A program made the translations under genes and the position numbers. The notes beneath the pieces are model-generated. The model searched no databases and was not told the origin of the DNA. It was given only the letters and a program-made list of their open reading frames with translations. Positions 10,448 to 26,514 of a stretch of 36,611 nucleotides of DNA are shown here, one piece after another. Source of the DNA: a virus (taxonomy: Duplodnaviria > Heunggongvirae > Uroviricota > Caudoviricetes); IMG/VR virus record IMGVR_UViG_2874956758_000004, positions 1-36,611 of that record. One strand, 5' to 3'. Positions within the stretch are counted from its first letter, which is position 1. Every line of letters begins with the position of its first letter.

Positions 10448-11077
10448 TCAGCCCCGGCTGGATCCAGTCATCAGGCTCTTTCTTAAAGGGGGAGTATTGA
10501 AATCACGAAGAAGAGCCTCCCGCACCGCAGCATCCATGTCTGCACCACTGGCAAGTGCTTCAATCTCTGCCGCCACCTGCAAATACCCCATGCAACGGCC
10601 AATGCGTTTCATAACTCTGGTGTTTTCGTCTTTCAGGCATCTGATAGCGAGATTAATAATTTTCAGGCAGTGATGATGCGATGCCCGGACAGGTTTTCCG
10701 TTCTCATAAACGACGAACTCACCCTCTTCACAGGAAACCCTGAAAGGCCGACGGGGTTCCTGGTCTTTATCCGGTGCAGACGCAATAAAATCACTTTTAT
10801 GCTCTTCCTCTCCGGCACTGTTAACCGTAATGACGTACTCAGGCCGCAGGTAAGCCGCCTCTTTTTCTGACAATGCGGCCGGTAAAAACTTTTCCTGCAA
10901 AAACTTCATAAAAGTCTCGTGAGCGACTTTGTGGCAGTAATCGTAAATCGCCGCATAATGCTCATCGCGGCGTTTGTTTTCATCTTCAGAACTCACCAAC
11001 GCCGACAATTTTTTATTAAGCTCAGTGATTTCATTTTCCAGGTGATTGAATCGCTGATTCATTTCTTCATGCTTCAT
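10448..11077 (-). CDS. Hypothetical 209-aa protein inserted between pinholin and endolysin
   Basis: ATG 3 nt after the S stop, preceded by GGGAGAG; N-terminal coiled-coil-like segment, HHH and five Cys in the C-terminal half; no family recognised. Confidence 0.6.
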   Translation of the reverse strand: MKHEEMNQRFNHLENEITELNKKLSALVSSEDENKRRDEHYAAIYDYCHKVAHETFMKFLQEKFLPAALSEKEAAYLRPEYVITVNSAGEEEHKSDFIASAPDKDQEPRRPFRVSCEEGEFVVYENGKPVRASHHHCLKIINLAIRCLKDENTRVMKRIGRCMGYLQVAAEIEALASGADMDAAVREALLRDFNTPPLRKSLMTGSSRG

Positions 11078-11080
11078 TAT

Positions 11081-11296
11081 TTACTCTCCCCGTGCAGCCT
11101 TACGCTTGTCTTCTCTTATTTTGAAATACAGATTCGTCAGATAAGTCAGAAGCCCCAGAAGCAGACTTCCCAGCACACCAATCGCAGCCCACTGTGACGG
11201 ACTGACCTGATCAAGCCACTGCAAAAACCAGTAGCCGGCACTGCCGGCGGAGGTGCCGTAGGCAATGCCCGTTGAAATTTTATCCATGGATTTCAT
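11081..11296 (-). CDS. S: Phage-21-type pinholin with dual start (Met1/Met4)
   Basis: [71 protein letters not shown] matches remembered S21. Confidence 0.85.
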
Positions 11297-11588: not shown

Positions 11589-11663
<75 letters not shown>

Positions 11664-11666
11664 ATA

Positions 11667-11742
<76 letters not shown>

Positions 11743-11744
11743 GC

Positions 11745-11821
11745 TGGCCCACCACCGAGGACTCGAACCTCGCACCGTCAACTTAGAAGGTTGATGCTCT
11801 ATCCGGATGAGCTAGTGGTGG
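11745..11821 (-). tRNA. tRNA-Arg (anticodon UCU, reads AGA)
   Basis: Reverse complement CCACCACTAGCTCATCCGGATAGAGCATCAACCTTCTAAGTTGACGGTGCGAGGTTCGAGTCCTCGGTGGTGGGCCA; perfect acceptor stem, anticodon loop CTTCTAA. Confidence 0.75.
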
Positions 11822-11822
11822 T

Positions 11823-11899
11823 TGGTGGCCCTTGCTGGACTTGAACCAGCGACCTGGCGATTATGAGTCGCTCGCTCTGACCAACTGAGCTAAAGGGCC
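11823..11899 (-). tRNA. tRNA with CAU anticodon, ileX-like (probable lysidine tRNA-Ile2 rather than Met)
   Basis: Reverse complement GGCCCTTTAGCTCAGTTGGTCAGAGCGAGCGACTCATAATCGCCAGGTCGCTGGTTCAAGTCCAGCAAGGGCCACCA; T arm and anticodon arm resemble remembered E. coli ileX. Confidence 0.75.
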
Positions 11900-11981
11900 G
11901 GAGGCAGAATAATAACCATATGTCATCACATCTGCAAACTCATCGTAAGCGTACAGCGAGGGCCGTATTGACGGGGATGTG

Positions 11982-13514
11982 TTATTCAGCTGGCAGTGCT
12001 ATGCGCCACGGAAGCAGTTCGCTGACCCGGTTGACCGGCCAGTCTGCTATGACGCCAAGCACATGGCGAAGGTAGCTTTCTGGATCCACGTCATTCAGTT
12101 TGCACGTCCCGATCAGGCTGTACAGTAGCGCTCCCCGCTCACCACCATGGTCAGAGCCGAAGAACAGGAAGTTTTTACGACCCAGACTGACCGCCCGCAG
12201 GGCATTTTCAGCGATGTTGTTGTCGATTTCCACCCAGCCATCGTTCGCATAGTACGTCAGTGCCGGCCACTGGTTAAGTGCGTACGCGAACGCCTTCGCC
12301 AACTCTGAGTGTCGCGACAGGGTCTTCATCTTTTCACGCAACCAGCTTTCCAGGGATTTCAACAGCGGTTTCGTTTTTCGCTGACGTTCAGCAAGCCGCT
12401 GCTCTGCCGGCATTCCCCTTATATCCGCCTCTATGGCGTACAACTGACCGAGCTGCTCCAGGGCTTCTTCCGTCAGTGCTGACGGGATGCGGACGTGCAC
12501 ATCGTGGATCTTTCGGCGGGCATGAGCCCAGCAGGCAGCTTCCGTTATCCCACCATTGCGGTACAGCTCGTTGAACCCGGCGTACGCATCCGCTTGCAGC
12601 ACACCGCTGAAGCAAGCAAGATGAGTCTGCGGATGGATGCCTTTTCTGTCCGGGCTGTAAGCGAACCACACTGCAGGTGCCAACGCTGACCCGGCATTGC
12701 GGTCATCACGAACATACGCCCACAACCGCCCGGTCTTCGTCTTCTTATTACCCGGCATCAGTACCTGGACCGGGGTATCATCAGCATGGAGTTTGCCGTC
12801 AGTCATGACATAGCCATGAAGCGCCTCTTCCAGCGGAGACAGCAGCCGGCAGCATGCATCCACCCAGCCCGACAGCAGTGAACGGCTCAGCTTCACACCT
12901 TGCCGGCCGTATATTTCTGACTGGCGATACAGCGGGGTGTGCTCTGCATACTTCGAGGTCAGCACGCGGGCCAGCAGCCCCGGTCCGGCGATACCCCGCT
13001 CGATGGGCCGCGAAGGTGCAGGTGCCTGCACGATGGCATCGCACTGAGTACAGGCATGTTTTTCCCGTACCGTCCGGATAACCCGGAAGGCACTACGCAT
13101 CAACTCCAGCTGTTCGGCGGTATCCTCGCCCAGATAGCTCAGTGAACCGCCGCAGTTCGGGCAGCACGGCGCCGCAGGCAACAGTCGCTTTTCGTCACGG
13201 GGTAGTGATTCAGGGAACGGCTTACGGGTGCGGGTCTGACGCAACGGACGCTGTACTGCCGGGTCATACACCCTACCAGTCAGCGTATCGCTCTCTTTCT
13301 GAAGCCGGTTCAGATCGGCTTCCATTTGTGCGATACGGCGGGAGACTTTTTCGGAACGACTGCCGAAGTTCATCCGGCGGAGTTTATCCAGCTGCGCCTG
13401 CAGATGGTCTATTTCGCGCTCCCGGTTGCTCAGCTTTTCCTGCAGGGCGTGGATCTCCTGTTCGGCCAGGCGCTGTTTCAGCAGGAAGATGTCGTCAGAA
13501 GAGATGTCGTTCAT
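11982..13514 (-). CDS. IS66-family transposase TnpC (orf3)
   Basis: 510-aa ORF with N-terminal coiled coil and CxxC zinc-finger segment (CCPNCGG…CTQC). Confidence 0.85.
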
Positions 13515-13563
13515 AAGCCCGTATTTTACCGGGCTTATTCTGTGACAACCAGGATAAAGAGAT

Positions 13564-13911
13564 TTACAGCATGGTCAGGGAGGTCAGCAGCCGCTTAGGC
13601 TGTCGCCAGTCGATACCTTCCAGCAGCATCGCCAGCTGCGCCTGCGTAAGGAACACTTTGCCATCACGGGCTGACGGCCAGGCGAAGCGCCCACGCTCCA
13701 GCCGTTTGGTCAGGAGGCACAGTCCGTCACCGGTGGACCACAGCAGTTTAACCTGACTGCCGCTGCGGCCCCGGAAAATGAAAACATGGCCGGACATGGG
13801 ATCGTCTTTCAGCGCCGTCTGTACTTTCGCAGCCAGACCGTTGAAGCCATTTCTCATATCGGTGATACCGGCAACCAGCCAAATTTTGGTCCCGGAAGGT
13901 AACGGGATCAT
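13564..13911 (-). CDS. IS66-family TnpB (orf2)
   Basis: 115-aa [34 protein letters not shown]… typical of IS66 orf2. Confidence 0.85.
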
Positions 13912-14309
13912 CGCTTCAGTTCCTGTATCAGCAGAGTCAGGAGCTTTTCGCTGACATTGCCATTGAAGCGGAGCGTCCCGTGCCGGAACGTTACCTCACA
14001 GCTGATACTGAGGGTTTCCGGGTCCTCTGCGAGCGATTCTGGCTGTTCGGCAGCTGCATCGAGAGTCACAGGAAGTAGCTGGGGGCTCTCTGAAGAAGGT
14101 AATAGCAGCTTTCCCTCGCGCCATTGTTGTCGCCATTTGAACAACAGATTGGCGTTAATGCCATTTTCAAGAGCAAGTTTTGAGATGGATATCCCGGGTT
14201 CACAGGAGGCAGCAACGAGCTGCTGTTTAAATTCGGGAGGATAATTAGGGCAGCCTTTTCGCCTGCCGGGAGTCACATTTTTCTGCATATCTGACACTTT
14301 GGTTCCCAC
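13908..14309 (-). CDS. IS66-family TnpA (orf1)
   Basis: 133-aa ORF, first of the three-gene IS66 arrangement. Confidence 0.8.
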   Translation of the reverse strand: MGTKVSDMQKNVTPGRRKGCPNYPPEFKQQLVAASCEPGISISKLALENGINANLLFKWRQQWREGKLLLPSSESPQLLPVTLDAAAEQPESLAEDPETLSISCEVTFRHGTLRFNGNVSEKLLTLLIQELKR

Positions 14310-14430
14310 TACTTATTGGTGGACACCACTTTGTCTAATTCGTCAGATTCTGACCAGACGGTTCAGGCTGTACGCTTACAACTCATCTGACCACCAGCGT
14401 GTTTAACGTCCTGTACCGTTTTTCAGGCAT

Positions 14431-14541: not shown

Positions 14542-14922
14542 TCAGGGATGTTCAATATATTTGTCCATTTCTAACCGGACACCCAACATCATCAACATTC
14601 CTTCCACCACCCCCTCGGCTTTTTGTAGCTTCTTTCCTATATAACCATCTGAGCATCCATGCTTCCGCGCCAGCGTCATGAATGTCATCCCAAACACGTA
14701 GTAGTCAACCAGCAAGTCATGTAGATCGTTGTTGTTCCGGTTAAGGCGGGCCATACACCCACATATAACCATCGCGTCATCGTCACAGCATTGCGGGCGG
14801 GATTTTACTTTTGAAGGGATTAATCCCTTAAAACCGGCAGCAATGGACGACCAGGTCACATCCTCATGATTATTAGCCACCCACGCGCCCCAGCGCTCAA
14901 GAACCTGCTGAATATCACGCAT
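14542..14922 (-). CDS. Q: Late-gene antiterminator Q (DLP12 QuuD-like); start taken at MRDIQQ
   Basis: [60 protein letters not shown]… matches remembered QuuD. Confidence 0.8.
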
Positions 14923-15118
14923 CACTGTCTTTACCCCTGTCCCATCCACGATGAACAATCAGAACACCATCAACAATGGCGTGCCCTTTGCCCTCTTTAT
15001 CTTCAGCATATTTTCTTACCGTGGCGCGATTACAGTTCAGCATTCGTGAAACTTCGGTCATATTACCTCGTGTCTGGATAAGCAGTTCCGGTATCGTTTG
15101 AATTTTGACGCTCATCAA
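14915..15118 (-). CDS. ninH: NinH-like DNA-binding protein
   Basis: …[57 protein letters not shown]… closely resembles lambda NinH. Confidence 0.75.
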
Positions 15119-18335: not shown

Positions 18336-18805
18336 TGATTGTTTTCATTGATAATTTCATTAAGGCGCTCACAATCTATACGGTAGAACATTTTGTGCTC
18401 AAGACGCTTGTTGGTTTCAACCAAAATGCCTCTGGACACAAGATGCTTACGCGCTACAGCCTGTTGTTCAAATGTAAGTCCGGTTTCGTGTTGTATCTCT
18501 TCACGCGTTTATGTACGCCTTCCGCTGCATGTGCTTTATCCTGCCAGTAAAAAATCTTACCAAAGAAAATAACAGCGTGCGGACTTCCCATGTATTTAAC
18601 GAGCCCAGGGTAATAAGCAACCGGATGTCCAAAATCGAGCAGAAGATCAGACGGACGCATAGCCACCTCCCAGGCGTTTAAACATTTTCCCGGACTGAAA
18701 CACCACCAGTGGGTAACTGATGGTGTAGCTACGCCCCAGTAATTCACACACAACTTTCTGGTTGAGGTGTACTGGCAATAGCGGACACTACCATTTGTTC
18801 TTTTT

Positions 18806-19624
18806 TTAAGCAGCCATCTGATGATATTTTTCCCTGAAGGCTGCCGGGGAGATATTCCCCAGACGAGAGTGACGACGCTGACGATTGTAGAAAATCTCAA
18901 TGTATTCCCGTATTACTGAGATGGCTTCATCCCGGTTATTAAAACGATAGTGGCTCAGGCTCTCATTTTTCAGCGTTCCCCAGAAGCTTTCCATCGGAGC
19001 GTTGTCGTAACAGTTACCTTTACGCGACATTGATGTTTTCAGACCAGACTGCTCCTGTATGACCCGGTAATCGTATGCGCAGTACTGTGAACCTCGATCA
19101 GAGTGGTGGATTAGCCCGGCAGGTGGGCGCTGGCTCCTGAGCGCCATAAACAGGGCTTTACCTGTCAGCTCTTTTGTCATGCGCTCTCCCATGGCGTAGC
19201 CGACAATTTCGCACGTATAAACATCTTTGACGCCGGCGAGATACAGCCATCCTTCCCGGGTGGCAACATACGTTATATCTGCGACCCAGACCTGATTAGG
19301 TGCTGTGGGCGTAAAGTTCTGATTCAGCAGATTCGGCGTAACCGGCAGATTGTGGTCTGAGTTTGTGGTCGCCCTGAATTTGCGTTTCTGCTTACAGTGC
19401 AGCCTCAGCTCCTTACGAAGACGTGCCAGTCGGTCACGACCAACGATGATGCCATTCTCTGCCAGCTCCGTCTGGAGCCGCCGGGTTCCATATGTTTCGC
19501 GAGTGCGGATATGTGCCACCTTAATCTCCAGTTTTAGCCGCTCATCACTTTGTTTTCTGTCTGAGGGTTCATGCTGTACCCAGTTGTAATAACCGCTCCT
19601 GGATACACCAAATACCTGACACAT
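18806..19624 (-). CDS. IS600 OrfB, intact reading frame (272 aa)
   Basis: MCQVFGVSRSGYYNWVQHEPSDRK…HSDRGSQYCAYDY…YHQMAA with no internal stop. Confidence 0.85.
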   Translation of the reverse strand: MCQVFGVSRSGYYNWVQHEPSDRKQSDERLKLEIKVAHIRTRETYGTRRLQTELAENGIIVGRDRLARLRKELRLHCKQKRKFRATTNSDHNLPVTPNLLNQNFTPTAPNQVWVADITYVATREGWLYLAGVKDVYTCEIVGYAMGERMTKELTGKALFMALRSQRPPAGLIHHSDRGSQYCAYDYRVIQEQSGLKTSMSRKGNCYDNAPMESFWGTLKNESLSHYRFNNRDEAISVIREYIEIFYNRQRRHSRLGNISPAAFREKYHQMAA

Positions 19625-19920
19625 CGCTTCAACAGGGAATTGTTGTCGCCATTGTTCGACTAACGCGTATTTTTCAGCGACTCCTGGGCAAAATACGCTG
19701 TTGTAGATTCAATCTGTCAATGCAACACCCCTTTCAATTATCTCTTTCGGTGTTTTGAACTTCAGTGTCTTTCTCGGTCTGTTGTTTAGCTGAGCAGCAA
19801 CCAGATCTAGTTCATGTTGAGTATATTGGGCAAGACATGTCTTTTTAGGAAAGTACTGCCGAATTAGCCCATTTGTGTTCTCATTTGTTCCCCGCTGCCA
19901 AGGACTCTGAGGATCGCAGA

Positions 19921-21525
19921 AGGGGATGCGGACGATTTCCTGGACTGCTTTATCATTCCAGCCCGCATTGTTGGCGGTACATTTCAGGGCTGACTGCACC
20001 CAGCGATAATTTTATACGCCGCTCGTTATACCATCTGATGTAAGCATCTACATGCTGCATGAACTTTTCTGGCGTGATGCCCGACCATTTACGCCCATAA
20101 TACATTTCCGTTTTCAGTCTGCCGAAAAAGCCTTCGCATGCAGCATTATCAGGTGAACATCCTTTACGGGACATTGAGCGAATAAGACCTGCTGCATTCA
20201 CTCTTTCCAGCCAGCCTGGCCAGCGATAATGCCCACCTCTGTCACTGTGTATCACCGGTCGTTCGCCAGCATTTAACGTTTCGACAGCGCTATCCAGCAT
20301 AGTGTTGACCAGTTCAGCATCGGGGCGTGTACTGAGAGACCAGCTCACAACTTTTCCATCGAAGCAGTCCACCACCGGTGACAGCCAGACTTTACCTGCA
20401 GGGAGCTGGAACTCCGTGATATCTGTCAGCCATTTCTGATTAGGTTGCTCCGCCTTAAAATCTCTGGCGATAAGGTTATCCGGAGCCGGTCCGATTTTTC
20501 CGCAATATGAGCTGTAGCGGCGCCGACGGTTACGGCTGACGACAAGCTGTTCCTCCACCATAAGTCTGCGTACAACCTTTTCTGATAGCCGAACCCCCTC
20601 ATGCCTGAGCATCGCATGCAGGCGACGATAGCCATAACACTGGTAATTACTGTTAAATATATCTGTCAGCATCGTACGTATCGTGGCGTATTTATCACCG
20701 GCTTTCAGGGCAGCCCGGTGATAAAAATAACTGCTACGGGCAAGGCCCAGAACATGCAGTAATTCTGTCAGGGGATATGTTTGTCTCAGGGCATCAGCGA
20801 TCTTTGTTTTTTCTCTGTTGTTCAGGTGACTGATACTGATGCCCGGGTCTTTTTTTATGATTTCCTCCGCCTTTTTCAGAATATCCAGCTCCATCTGCCG
20901 GCGGCGTATTTCCTGATTCAGTCGGGCGACTTCCTCCCGCAACGCATCGCGTTCTGCCTCCAGGGAAGGTTCGTTATGTTTACGCATAGTCTGGTAAGCA
21001 CTGTTGCCGATAATTTCATCTTTCCATTTATACAATACCGCACGACTGACACCAATACGCCTGGCGATTTCACTGGCTGATACTTGTCGTGTACAGAGTG
21101 CCATGACAGCCTGACGTTTGACTTCTGGTTCAAAGGGCGCAACCGGGTTGGCCTTACTGGTAAATATACGTCGTCTGTCGGGATAAAGTTCATTAACCCA
21201 GCGAGCGAGTACATCAGTGCAGGGATAACCCAGGGCTCTGCTGGTAAACGCCAGGCAGCAGCCGTGGTTAAGATAATGTTCAACGGCAACCTGTTTTTGT
21301 TCATCGGAGTAACGGTGCTTATGACGAATAGATTCTTTTGCGCCACCACCTGCTTCCCATGAGCGGATCCAACGCCGCAGATTTCTTTTCGAAGGGTAGC
21401 CCAGTTCGCGTACGACGGGAGCCAGCTTCTTACCATATTTGAAATAAAGCTCAATGGCGCGGATTTTTTCTTCTTCAGTAAACATGTGTTATCTCCTGAG
21501 AGTCCAGGAAATCGTCCGCATCCCC
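19921..21525 (-). mobile_element. IS3-superfamily element (1605 bp), 25-bp perfect terminal inverted repeats, 3-bp target duplication
   Basis: Ends GGGGATGCGGACGATTTCCTGGACT / AGTCCAGGAAATCGTCCGCATCCCC; gaa at 19918-19920 and 21526-21528. Confidence 0.8.
19953..21485 (-). CDS. Single-ORF transposase, 510 aa (two N-terminal HTH-like segments plus integrase-type DDE domain)
   Basis: …WLTDITEF…, …HSDRGGHYRW…, C-terminal …SLGAVSPEMYRQQ typical of IS3-family OrfB, fused to an OrfA-like N-terminus with no frameshift. Confidence 0.75.
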   Translation of the reverse strand: MFTEEEKIRAIELYFKYGKKLAPVVRELGYPSKRNLRRWIRSWEAGGGAKESIRHKHRYSDEQKQVAVEHYLNHGCCLAFTSRALGYPCTDVLARWVNELYPDRRRIFTSKANPVAPFEPEVKRQAVMALCTRQVSASEIARRIGVSRAVLYKWKDEIIGNSAYQTMRKHNEPSLEAERDALREEVARLNQEIRRRQMELDILKKAEEIIKKDPGISISHLNNREKTKIADALRQTYPLTELLHVLGLARSSYFYHRAALKAGDKYATIRTMLTDIFNSNYQCYGYRRLHAMLRHEGVRLSEKVVRRLMVEEQLVVSRNRRRRYSSYCGKIGPAPDNLIARDFKAEQPNQKWLTDITEFQLPAGKVWLSPVVDCFDGKVVSWSLSTRPDAELVNTMLDSAVETLNAGERPVIHSDRGGHYRWPGWLERVNAAGLIRSMSRKGCSPDNAACEGFFGRLKTEMYYGRKWSGITPEKFMQHVDAYIRWYNERRIKLSLGAVSPEMYRQQCGLE

Positions 21526-25194: not shown

Positions 25195-25285
25195 TAGACT
25201 GGCCCCCTGAATCTCCAGACAACCAGTATCACTTAAATAAGTGATAGTCTTAATACTAGTTTTTAGACTAGTCATTGGAGAACAG

Positions 25286-25651
25286 ATGATTGATGTCTTA
25301 GGGCCGGAGAAACGCAGACGGCGTACCACACAGGAAAAGATCGCAATTGTTCAGCAGAGCTTTGAACCGGGGATGACGGTCTCCCTCGTTGCCCGGCAAC
25401 ATGGTATAGCAGCCAGCCAGTTATTTCTCTGGCGTAAGCAATACCAGGAAGGAAGTCTTACTGCTGTGGCCGCCGGAGAACAGGTTGTTCCTGCCTCTCA
25501 ACTTGCTGCCGCCATGAAGCAGATTAAAGAACTCCAGCGCCTGCTCGGCAAGAAAACGATGGAAAATGAACTCCTCAAAGAAGCCGTTGAATATGGACGG
25601 GCAAAAAAGTGGATAGCGCACGCGCCCTTATTGCCCGGGGATGGGGAGTAA
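25286..25651 (+). CDS. insC: IS2 OrfA (InsC)
   Basis: As other copies; one substitution (QHGIAAS). Confidence 0.9.
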
Positions 25652-26514
25652 GCTTAGTCAGCCGTTGTCTCCGGGTGTCGCGTGCGCAGTTGCACGTCAT
25701 TCTCAGACGAACCGATGACTGGATGGATGGCCGCCGCAGTCGTCACACTGATGATACGGATGTGCTTCTCCGTATACACCATGTTATCGGAGAGCTGCCC
25801 ACGTATGGTTATCGTCGGGTATGGGCGCTGCTTCGCAGACAGGCAGAACTTGATGGTATGCCTGCGATCAATGCCAAACGTGTTTACCGGATCATGCGCC
25901 AGAATGCGCTGTTGCTTGAGCGAAAACCTGCTGTACCGCCATCGAAACGGGCACATACAGGCAGAGTGGCCGTGAAAGAAAGCAATCAGCGATGGTGCTC
26001 TGACGGGTTCGAGTTCTGCTGTGATAACGGAGAGAGACTGCGTGTCACGTTCGCGCTGGACTGCTGTGATCGTGAGGCACTGCACTGGGCGATGACTACC
26101 GGCGGCTTCAACAGTGAAACAGTACAGGACGTCATGCTGGGAGCGGTGGAACGCCGCTTCGGCAACGATCTTCCGTCGTCTCCAGTGGAGTGGCTGACGG
26201 ATAATGGTTCATGCTACCGGGCTAATGAAACACGCCAGTTCGCCCGGATGTTGGGACTTGAACCGAAGAACACGGCGGTGCGGAGTCCGGAGAGTAACGG
26301 AATAGCAGAGAGCTTCGTGAAAACGATAAAGCGTGACTACATCAGTATCATGCCCAAACCAGACGGGTTAACGGCAGCAAAGAACCTTGCAGAGGCGTTC
26401 GAGCATTATAACGAATGGCATCCGCATAGTGCGCTGGGTTATCGCTCGCCACGGGAATATCTGCGGCAGCGGGCTTGTAATGGGTTAAGTGATAACAGAT
26501 GTCTGGAAATATAG
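25609..26514 (+). CDS. insD: IS2 OrfB (InsD)
   Basis: As other copies; one substitution (HWAMTTGG). Confidence 0.9.

Follow-up and report, generated by a model that had tools for sequence, protein, structure and literature searches.

A frameshifted slot gene in a phage-21-type lysis cassette and the mosaic accessory family to which it belongs

The window analysed here, a 36,611-nucleotide (nt) stretch of caudovirus DNA (positions 1 to 36,611 of IMG/VR record IMGVR_UViG_2874956758_000004), carries a phage-21-type lysis cassette in which a gene for a 209-amino-acid (aa) protein, here called X, lies between the holin gene S and the endolysin gene R. X had been singled out in an earlier note, made from the letters of the sequence and its open reading frames (ORFs), as a gene of no recognisable family. 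The ORF is real, with its strand corrected to minus, and its placement was as described: the ATG (11077) is separated from the TAA stop codon of S (11083..11081) by 3 nt (ATA), a GGAG ribosome-binding site lies 8 nt 5′ of the ATG, and the X stop (10448) and the R start (10382) leave a 65-nt spacer. S, X and R are tightly packed in the same orientation, and a scan of the coding strand found no promoter-like or terminator-like site between them. An internal promoter or terminator that would insulate X from S or R was ruled out on this basis.

The surrounding genes form the cassette that the earlier note had described. S, R, Rz and the embedded Rz1 all match Pfam families, and all four are intact in the window. 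S begins with MKSMDK, which contains the dual-start motif M1-K-S-M4 of a class II, S21-type holin. The translation of R has a Gly/Ala-rich N-terminal segment resembling a signal-anchor-release (SAR) sequence and the catalytic triad E-8-D-5-T, as in SAR endolysins. The GTG start codon of Rz overlaps the stop codon of R, and the longest Rz ORF begins with a TTG at 9867.

The exact X protein is present in RefSeq (WP_001300760.1). Its highest hydropathy over 19 residues is 0.76, from which we conclude that X has no membrane segment and is soluble; its sequence shows no export or receptor-binding features. The HHH triplet that had been reported is found at residues 134–136. Five cysteines were also reported for the C-terminal half, and X does have five (residues 48, 116, 137, 147 and 162), of which four are in that half and C48 is outside it. 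A metal site formed by the triplet and the cysteines was considered and rejected, as only H136 and C162 are conserved across the family.

X is a real gene, as the earlier note had supposed, and far more than a chance ORF. Among 5.8 billion proteins, a word-indexed search recovered 132 homologues, X matches a PHROG profile, and the core of the protein is under purifying selection. In pairwise comparisons, the ratio of nonsynonymous to synonymous substitution rates lay at 0.18–0.35 in the core (residues 108–196), at 0.3–0.6 in the N-terminal module and close to 1 in the linker between them. When 1.84 billion cluster representatives were scanned exhaustively with HMMER, only 37 hits were obtained, and two of these, the repeat proteins P0140 and P0150, are spurious.

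The claim that X matches no family held for Pfam and NCBIfam, where scans of X and its relatives gave nothing above threshold for X, but not for PHROGs. X matches positions 117–288 of the 296 positions of phrog_1085 (E = 3.9e-74, 250.7 bits), a family to which PHROGs assigns no function and which a distant relative, P0129, also matches. Compared with this profile, X lacks the N-terminal, DUF1327-like part and has lost its last residues through a frameshift. The DUF1327 domain (PF07041) could not be found in X even at E ≤ 0.1. Many relatives have the modules of X fused to this domain, for example P0004, P0091 and P0082, and longer relatives are annotated as ‘YdfR family’ or ‘DUF1327 domain-containing’. 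The clearest case is P0004, a 333-aa ‘YdfR family’ protein whose first 100 residues are the DUF1327 domain (6.6e-35) and whose C-terminal part is 82% identical over 94% of X; P0091, which is 43% identical to X, scores 9.1e-41 for PF07041. In sequence, X corresponds to the last two thirds of the long proteins of the YdfR family, minus DUF1327. With its protein catalogued, its family in PHROGs and its longer relatives named, X can no longer be called undescribed.

The taxonomic spread of the family is narrow. A scan for the X pattern in one genome per species found it only in Shigella flexneri, Escherichia coli and an Escherichia sp., and distant members, with 31–45% identity over the core, come from Salmonella enterica and metagenomic contigs. 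In a profile search with these distant members, the 120 best matches listed were all E. coli or Salmonella proteins, named only ‘hypothetical’, ‘YdfR’ or ‘DUF1327’. Annotated phages that carry a gene at this position include the Shiga toxin (Stx) 2a phage 12E129, Stx2 phage 86 (gp05, ‘YdfR family protein’) and PhiR12_2.

Searches for function gave no lead, and the earlier statement that no function could be assigned to X still stands after profile, defence and fold searches. PADLOC defence models did not match X, P0002, P0004 or P0129; neither X nor Y, the convergent partner gene of its relatives, matched a toxin, immunity or defence family in Pfam, PADLOC and PHROG scans; and X showed no similarity in sequence or fold to a known antiholin or lysis regulator in Pfam, PHROG and fold searches. 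A profile search against PDB sequences returned only coiled-coil noise. Two AlphaFold2 models had mean confidences (predicted local distance difference test, pLDDT) of 62 and 67 and predicted template modelling (pTM) scores of 0.40 and 0.62. Foldseek searches found nothing interpretable in BFVD (best E = 0.15) or in the PDB (best E = 0.64), although, because the models are of medium confidence, these negatives are weak evidence.

Alignment of the family resolves it into modules: an optional DUF1327 domain, a helical ‘N’ module (X residues 1–62), an optional ‘mid’ linker (63–107), and a core followed by a tail. In module make-up the family is mosaic. The models predict a helical hairpin at residues 3–64, in agreement with the coiled-coil-like N-terminal segment seen earlier, then a disordered stretch (65–107), a three-stranded sheet (113–130) followed by three helices, and a tail of low confidence. 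The conserved core would be an alpha/beta domain of about 90 residues (X ~108–196), preceded by a variable linker (~65–107). Core and tail share the pattern ...RIGRCMGYLQVAAEIEA...DFNTPPFKxxPxxWxxPGxxYLKxRI, in which the conserved tail is basic and rich in Pro and Trp.

The window allele of X departs from this pattern at its 3′ end. In protein alignments it diverges from all relatives past ...DFNTPP, and translation of the next frame from that point gives PFKKEPDDWIQPGLTYLKRRI*, which is exactly the family tail. DNA alignment identified the cause as a 1-nt deletion in a run of five C on the coding strand. The sequence is ACTCCGCCCTTTAAG in Stx2a phage 12E129 and ACTCC-CCCTTTAAG in the window, and the two are near-identical downstream up to the ancestral stop codon. 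The final 12 residues of X as annotated (LRKSLMTGSSRG) are out of frame relative to the family, and the conserved tail PPFKxxPxxWxxPGxxYLKxRI, absent from the annotated frame, remains readable in the alternative one. The intact form has 217 aa, as in P0002 (90% identical). Among 171 loci the tail is intact in 155, and the aberrant tail PPLRKSLMTGSSRG occurs in 14, all within the allele group of the window. Six complete E. coli genomes carry the window allele at 100% identity, and Shigella flexneri has it too (P0003, L005). As the lost residues include the nearly invariant positions F198, K199, P202, W205, P208, G209, Y212, L213, K214 and R216, the product of this allele is probably impaired.

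The deletion also creates the sequence C CCU UUA (10480–10495, minus strand), formally a −1 slippery heptamer at which a slip would restore ...KKEPDDWIQPGLTYLKRRI. No stimulatory structure stands out downstream (z = −0.46), and the allele is confined to one lineage. Programmed −1 frameshifting was rejected on these two grounds, and the deletion is taken as a plain mutation.

The position of X between S and R is not unusual. The earlier note held that S–R cassettes of this type are normally contiguous, and this did not survive a survey of 80 IMG/VR loci with a holin at least 89% identical to S of the window, in 73 of which both S and R were visible. The slot between them was occupied in 47 of the 73 (64%), while in 26 (36%) S was followed directly by R; in these contiguous cassettes, S and R are 90–97% identical and there is no slot gene. 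All 47 slot genes start 4 nt past the S stop codon and contain a DUF1327 domain; the N module is additionally present in two of them and the X core in one. The Qin prophage of E. coli K-12 also has a filled slot, in the order essQ-ydfR-rrrQ-rzpQ/rzoQ. A slot gene is not mentioned in the searched passages of a survey of Stx-phage lysis cassettes.

A second survey, of 160 loci (80 IMG/VR and 80 metagenomic) selected by the X core, showed how the modules combine in the slot. S was upstream in all 157 loci with enough flanking sequence, and R was downstream in 147 of 148. The most frequent arrangement was S-[N-core]-R (43 of the 160), followed by S-[DUF1327-N-core]-R (28) and by S-[N-mid-core]-Y←R (18), in which Y, on the opposite strand, comes before R. 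The window type, S-[N-mid-core]-R, was found at 14 loci, S-[DUF1327-mid-core]-Y←R also at 14, and S-[DUF1327-mid-core]-R at 12; rarer or contig-truncated architectures made up the remaining 31. Of 5426 complete E. coli genomes compared by DNA sequence, 6 have the whole S-X-R-Rz arrangement of the window and 94 contain X-like DNA. Thus X is not a one-off insertion, as it belongs to a common accessory family of E. coli, Shigella and Salmonella prophages, and it is dispensable for lysis, since over a third of near-identical cassettes have no slot gene. The gene is indeed a routine and annotated component of S–R cassettes, an outcome that the earlier note had set against its own reading, but not one with a known function.

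Gene Y encodes a protein of about 104 aa that belongs to phrog_1853 (no function assigned). It is convergent to the X core, with stop codons 11–19 nt apart, and follows X in Stx2a phage 12E129 and in phage 86. Homologues of Y (37–45% identity) follow distant X-like genes on two contigs, L091 and L092, and all match phrog_1853. A profile search with Y found 37 clusters, from E. coli and Salmonella enterica. Y adjoins the core in 41 of the 160 X-core loci; across 252 loci, core and Y occur together in 47, the core alone in 125, and Y without the core in none. In Salmonella prophages, Y is convergent to a 262- or 192-aa homologue of the X core (44–45% identity over residues 111–214), and here the two genes are located upstream of the S21-type holin gene, with HicAB or ArtA-like cargo next to them. 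Sequence divergence has proceeded in parallel in the core and in Y (31–45% against 37–50% identity). The window has no Y homologue (best tblastn E = 0.18), and a simple scan found no sigma-70-like promoter for Y.

The pair also occurs in a third context. On contig L091, where no holin gene is visible, the X-like gene and Y lie directly 3′ of a DUF4406 gene; in the window, the gene directly 3′ of Rz is also of the DUF4406 (nucleoside 2-deoxyribosyltransferase-like) type. Where a slot gene ends in the coiled-coil N module and has no core, the convergent gene that follows it is a DUF1823 gene and not Y. Different C-terminal modules thus seem to travel with different opposite-strand partners. Two further observations concern the Salmonella loci. 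In this hot spot for cargo, upstream of the holin gene, the X-like/Y pair adjoins a HicAB toxin–antitoxin pair at L254, and at L256 and L257 a 270-aa gene near the pair has faint matches to Pertussis_S1 and Scabin-like (ADP-ribosyltransferase toxin) families.

The DNA around X is a decayed, insertion sequence (IS)-riddled prophage remnant of the ipaH-bearing type found in Shigella and enteroinvasive E. coli (EIEC), marked as such by an IpaH-family type III effector gene that adjoins a phage tail-fibre N-terminal fragment (6463..5405). Upstream of S, on the same strand as X, are four tRNA genes (called by ARAGORN as Met/Ile-type CAT, Arg-TCT, Thr-TGT and Gly-TCC) and the antiterminator gene Q. 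An IS66-family element, with ORFs at 14309..13908, 13911..13564 and 13514..11982 oriented with late transcription, sits between Q and the block of tRNA genes, S, X and R. It is absent from otherwise 99–100% identical loci of E. coli RMDEC465 and S. flexneri SFBU1023, and its insertion may affect Q-dependent expression of S, X and R. The prophage is truncated past Rz and the DUF4406 gene, where more IS copies break into it. Elsewhere the window holds an element with 136-aa and 301-aa ORFs in three copies, an IS3-family element in two, and a further transposase gene of IS66 type. Genes for replication and recombination (lambda P-like, RecT, integrase) are present as a second set, which suggests adjacent or rearranged prophage remnants. 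The coordinates of the features are collected in Table 1.

Table 1. Positions of gene X, its neighbours and related features in the window and in other loci (L numbers).
Feature	Sequence	Position	Strand	Basis or remark
Gene X, 209-aa soluble protein as read in the window	window	10448..11077	minus	ATG start
1-nt deletion site in X, C5 run on the coding strand	window	10488..10492	minus	DNA alignment and three-frame translation
Ancestral 3′ end of X in the other frame, reading FKKEPDDWIQPGLTYLKRRI	window	10425..10487	minus	stop at 10427..10425
S, S21-type class II holin (pinholin), 71 aa	window	11081..11296	minus	PF04971, 1.1e-35
R, 177-aa lysozyme	window	9849..10382	minus	PF00959
Rz, i-spanin	window	9385..9852	minus	PF03245; identical locus as annotated in RefSeq
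Rz1, o-spanin lipoprotein embedded in Rz	window	9426..9632	minus	PF06085, 1.9e-21
Four tRNA genes between the late promoter region and S	window	11589..11899	minus	ARAGORN
IS66-family insertion, 8-bp target duplication	window	11945..14379	minus	comparison with near-identical loci
Q, antiterminator gene of the late operon	window	14542..14958	minus	PF06530, 5.8e-54
DUF4406 gene	window	9032-9343	minus	
IpaH-family type III effector, 583 aa	window	1293-3044	plus	LRR_TTSS and NEL E3-ligase domains (PF14496, 6e-77)
Element encoding 136-aa and 301-aa ORFs, three copies	window	4088-5361; 25241-26514; 30245-31518		
IS3-family element, two copies	window	8022-8962; 18762-19703		
Second IS66-type transposase gene, 510 aa	window	19953-21485		
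Y	L002	3654-3968	minus	
Y	L003	3493-3807	minus	
Y	L091	2378-2713	minus	
Y	L092	585-902	minus	
Y	L254	4001-4318		
Y	L256	4001-4318		
DUF4406 gene	L091	1089-1487		
Convergent DUF1823 gene	L004	3143-3403	minus	likewise in L016, L017, L034 and L038
270-aa gene, faint Pertussis_S1 / Scabin-like matches	L256	5785-6597	minus	
270-aa gene, faint Pertussis_S1 / Scabin-like matches	L257	2204-3016	minus	

What, then, is X? Its identity as a DUF1327-less, frameshifted member of the slot-gene family of S21-type cassettes is secure. The closest described proteins are those of the YdfR/DUF1327 group (YdfR of K-12 Qin, gp05 of phage 86), which occupy the same slot, 3–4 nt past the stop codon of an S21-type holin gene and before R, and whose long members (259–333 aa) include all of X in their C-terminal portion. 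X differs from them in having no DUF1327 domain, while the 103-aa YdfR of K-12 has no X core. For the role of X, the reading we favour, and consider probable though well short of certain, is that X is the Shigella/EIEC-lineage allele of a widespread accessory family of the S–R slot, a late cargo gene (moron) that is probably decaying here. X would be carried as cargo on the late transcript and would not be part of the lysis machinery. Its product would be cytoplasmic and probably oligomeric through the helical hairpin, with the core and tail most likely docking onto a partner, either Y ancestrally or a host protein. A host-directed role, or one in phage–phage conflict late in infection, seems likely for such a protein, and the window copy is most likely decaying and functionally impaired. 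Portable cargo is favoured over a part of the lysis machinery because the gene is dispensable and mosaic, and because the core/Y pair is found in varying positions.

Morons are well known around the lysis cassettes of lambdoid phages, where the late operon may carry stx, nanS-p, ant or bor. X resembles these in being non-essential, variably present, close to pR′ beside S-R-Rz, and mosaic among near-identical cassettes. However, stx, nanS-p, ant and bor have known products and X has none, and X is translationally packed against S with no obvious signals of its own. In pore-forming colicin operons, the activity gene is followed by an immunity gene on the opposite strand and by a lysis gene. The likeness here is one of layout only, and only in relatives of X with the order X, convergent Y, R; there is no similarity in sequence or fold, Y looks soluble, and most X genes, that of the window included, have no Y.

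Several observations weigh against reading X as decaying cargo. The core lies constantly beside an S21-type holin gene, as would be expected of a holin-linked function no less than of a cargo hot spot. Y is absent beside the core in 125 of the 172 core-bearing loci, and so it is not an obligatory partner. Some activity of X may persist here, since the frameshifted allele is 100% identical in several genomes, residues 1–196 are unchanged by the frameshift, and none of S, R, Rz and Rz1 is damaged. The description of the domains and the lack of fold matches must also be taken as soft, given pLDDT values of 62 and 67.

A role in lysis timing would build most directly on the company that X keeps. 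T4 RIII and P1 LydB are cytoplasmic or holin-adjacent regulators of lysis, and X could likewise act from the cytoplasm to modulate the S21 pinholin or the release of the SAR endolysin. The short gap to S, with no promoter or terminator between, puts X on the same transcript; the core is beside the S21-type holin gene whether downstream of it (Escherichia) or just upstream (Salmonella); and the basic, amphipathic, conserved tail could bring the protein to the membrane. Yet a slot gene is missing from 36% of the cassettes whose S and R are near-identical, and many others carry the DUF1327 domain only and no core. The module also shifts its position relative to S, with one contig (L091) showing no holin gene, X resembles no known antiholin or lysis regulator, and the dual start visible in S21 already gives the holin its own antiholin. 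We regard this role as unlikely, and action in lysis at this locus is made less likely by the frameshifted allele and the decayed prophage. A different lead comes from the DUF1327 fusions. YdfR, through DUF1327 (residues 1–72), binds the N-terminal domain (catalytic half) of RNase E in bacterial two-hybrid (BACTH) and pull-down experiments, and RNA co-purifies with it (PMC13232886). As X modules are fused to this domain in P0004, P0091 and P0082, X could be the effector or regulatory half of YdfR-type proteins, acting in RNA metabolism, for example on the stability of late mRNA. But the experimental data concern the DUF1327 part and not X, which does not have this carrier of the interaction and to which the RNase E lead does not extend beyond the fused forms; YdfR of K-12, in turn, has no X core, overexpression of YdfR changed few transcripts (PMC13232886), and a domain fusion is indirect evidence. 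A role in RNA metabolism strikes us as unlikely.

The convergent pair invites another explanation, in which X is a late toxic or exclusion effector and Y an antidote or immunity protein expressed in the lysogen, the window X having been orphaned and inactivated. The pairing of core and Y is conserved across Escherichia, Salmonella and the two metagenomic contigs, with closely spaced stop codons and parallel divergence, and in 252 loci Y never occurs without the core. Core-less slot genes pair with a different convergent gene, DUF1823, and the X of the window is both frameshifted and without Y. This is still quite improbable in our view, as 125 of 172 core-bearing loci have an intact X but no adjacent Y, no toxin, immunity or defence family is matched, the simple scan found no sigma-70-like promoter for Y, and X has no export or receptor-binding features. 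A broader version, which we hold to be doubtful, is that the X core and Y make up an undescribed two-gene late effector/partner module that moves between S21-cassette hot spots, that its cytoplasmic effector is restrained by, or acts together with, the opposite-strand partner, which would probably be expressed in the lysogen, that the effector in the window was orphaned and then inactivated after loss of Y, and that the DUF1327 fusions link the module to RNase E.

Taken alone, the X of the window is ordinary: a catalogued hypothetical protein in a commonly filled slot, and a damaged copy. The family is of wider concern, as it rides the late, Q-dependent operon beside the lysis genes in many E. 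coli and Shigella prophages, Stx-converting phages included. Leads on its function come from the partner Y and from the frequent fusion to the RNase E-binding DUF1327. If the family does affect lysis timing or host physiology, then it could, speculatively and beyond anything that the window directly supports, influence the release of toxin by Stx phages.
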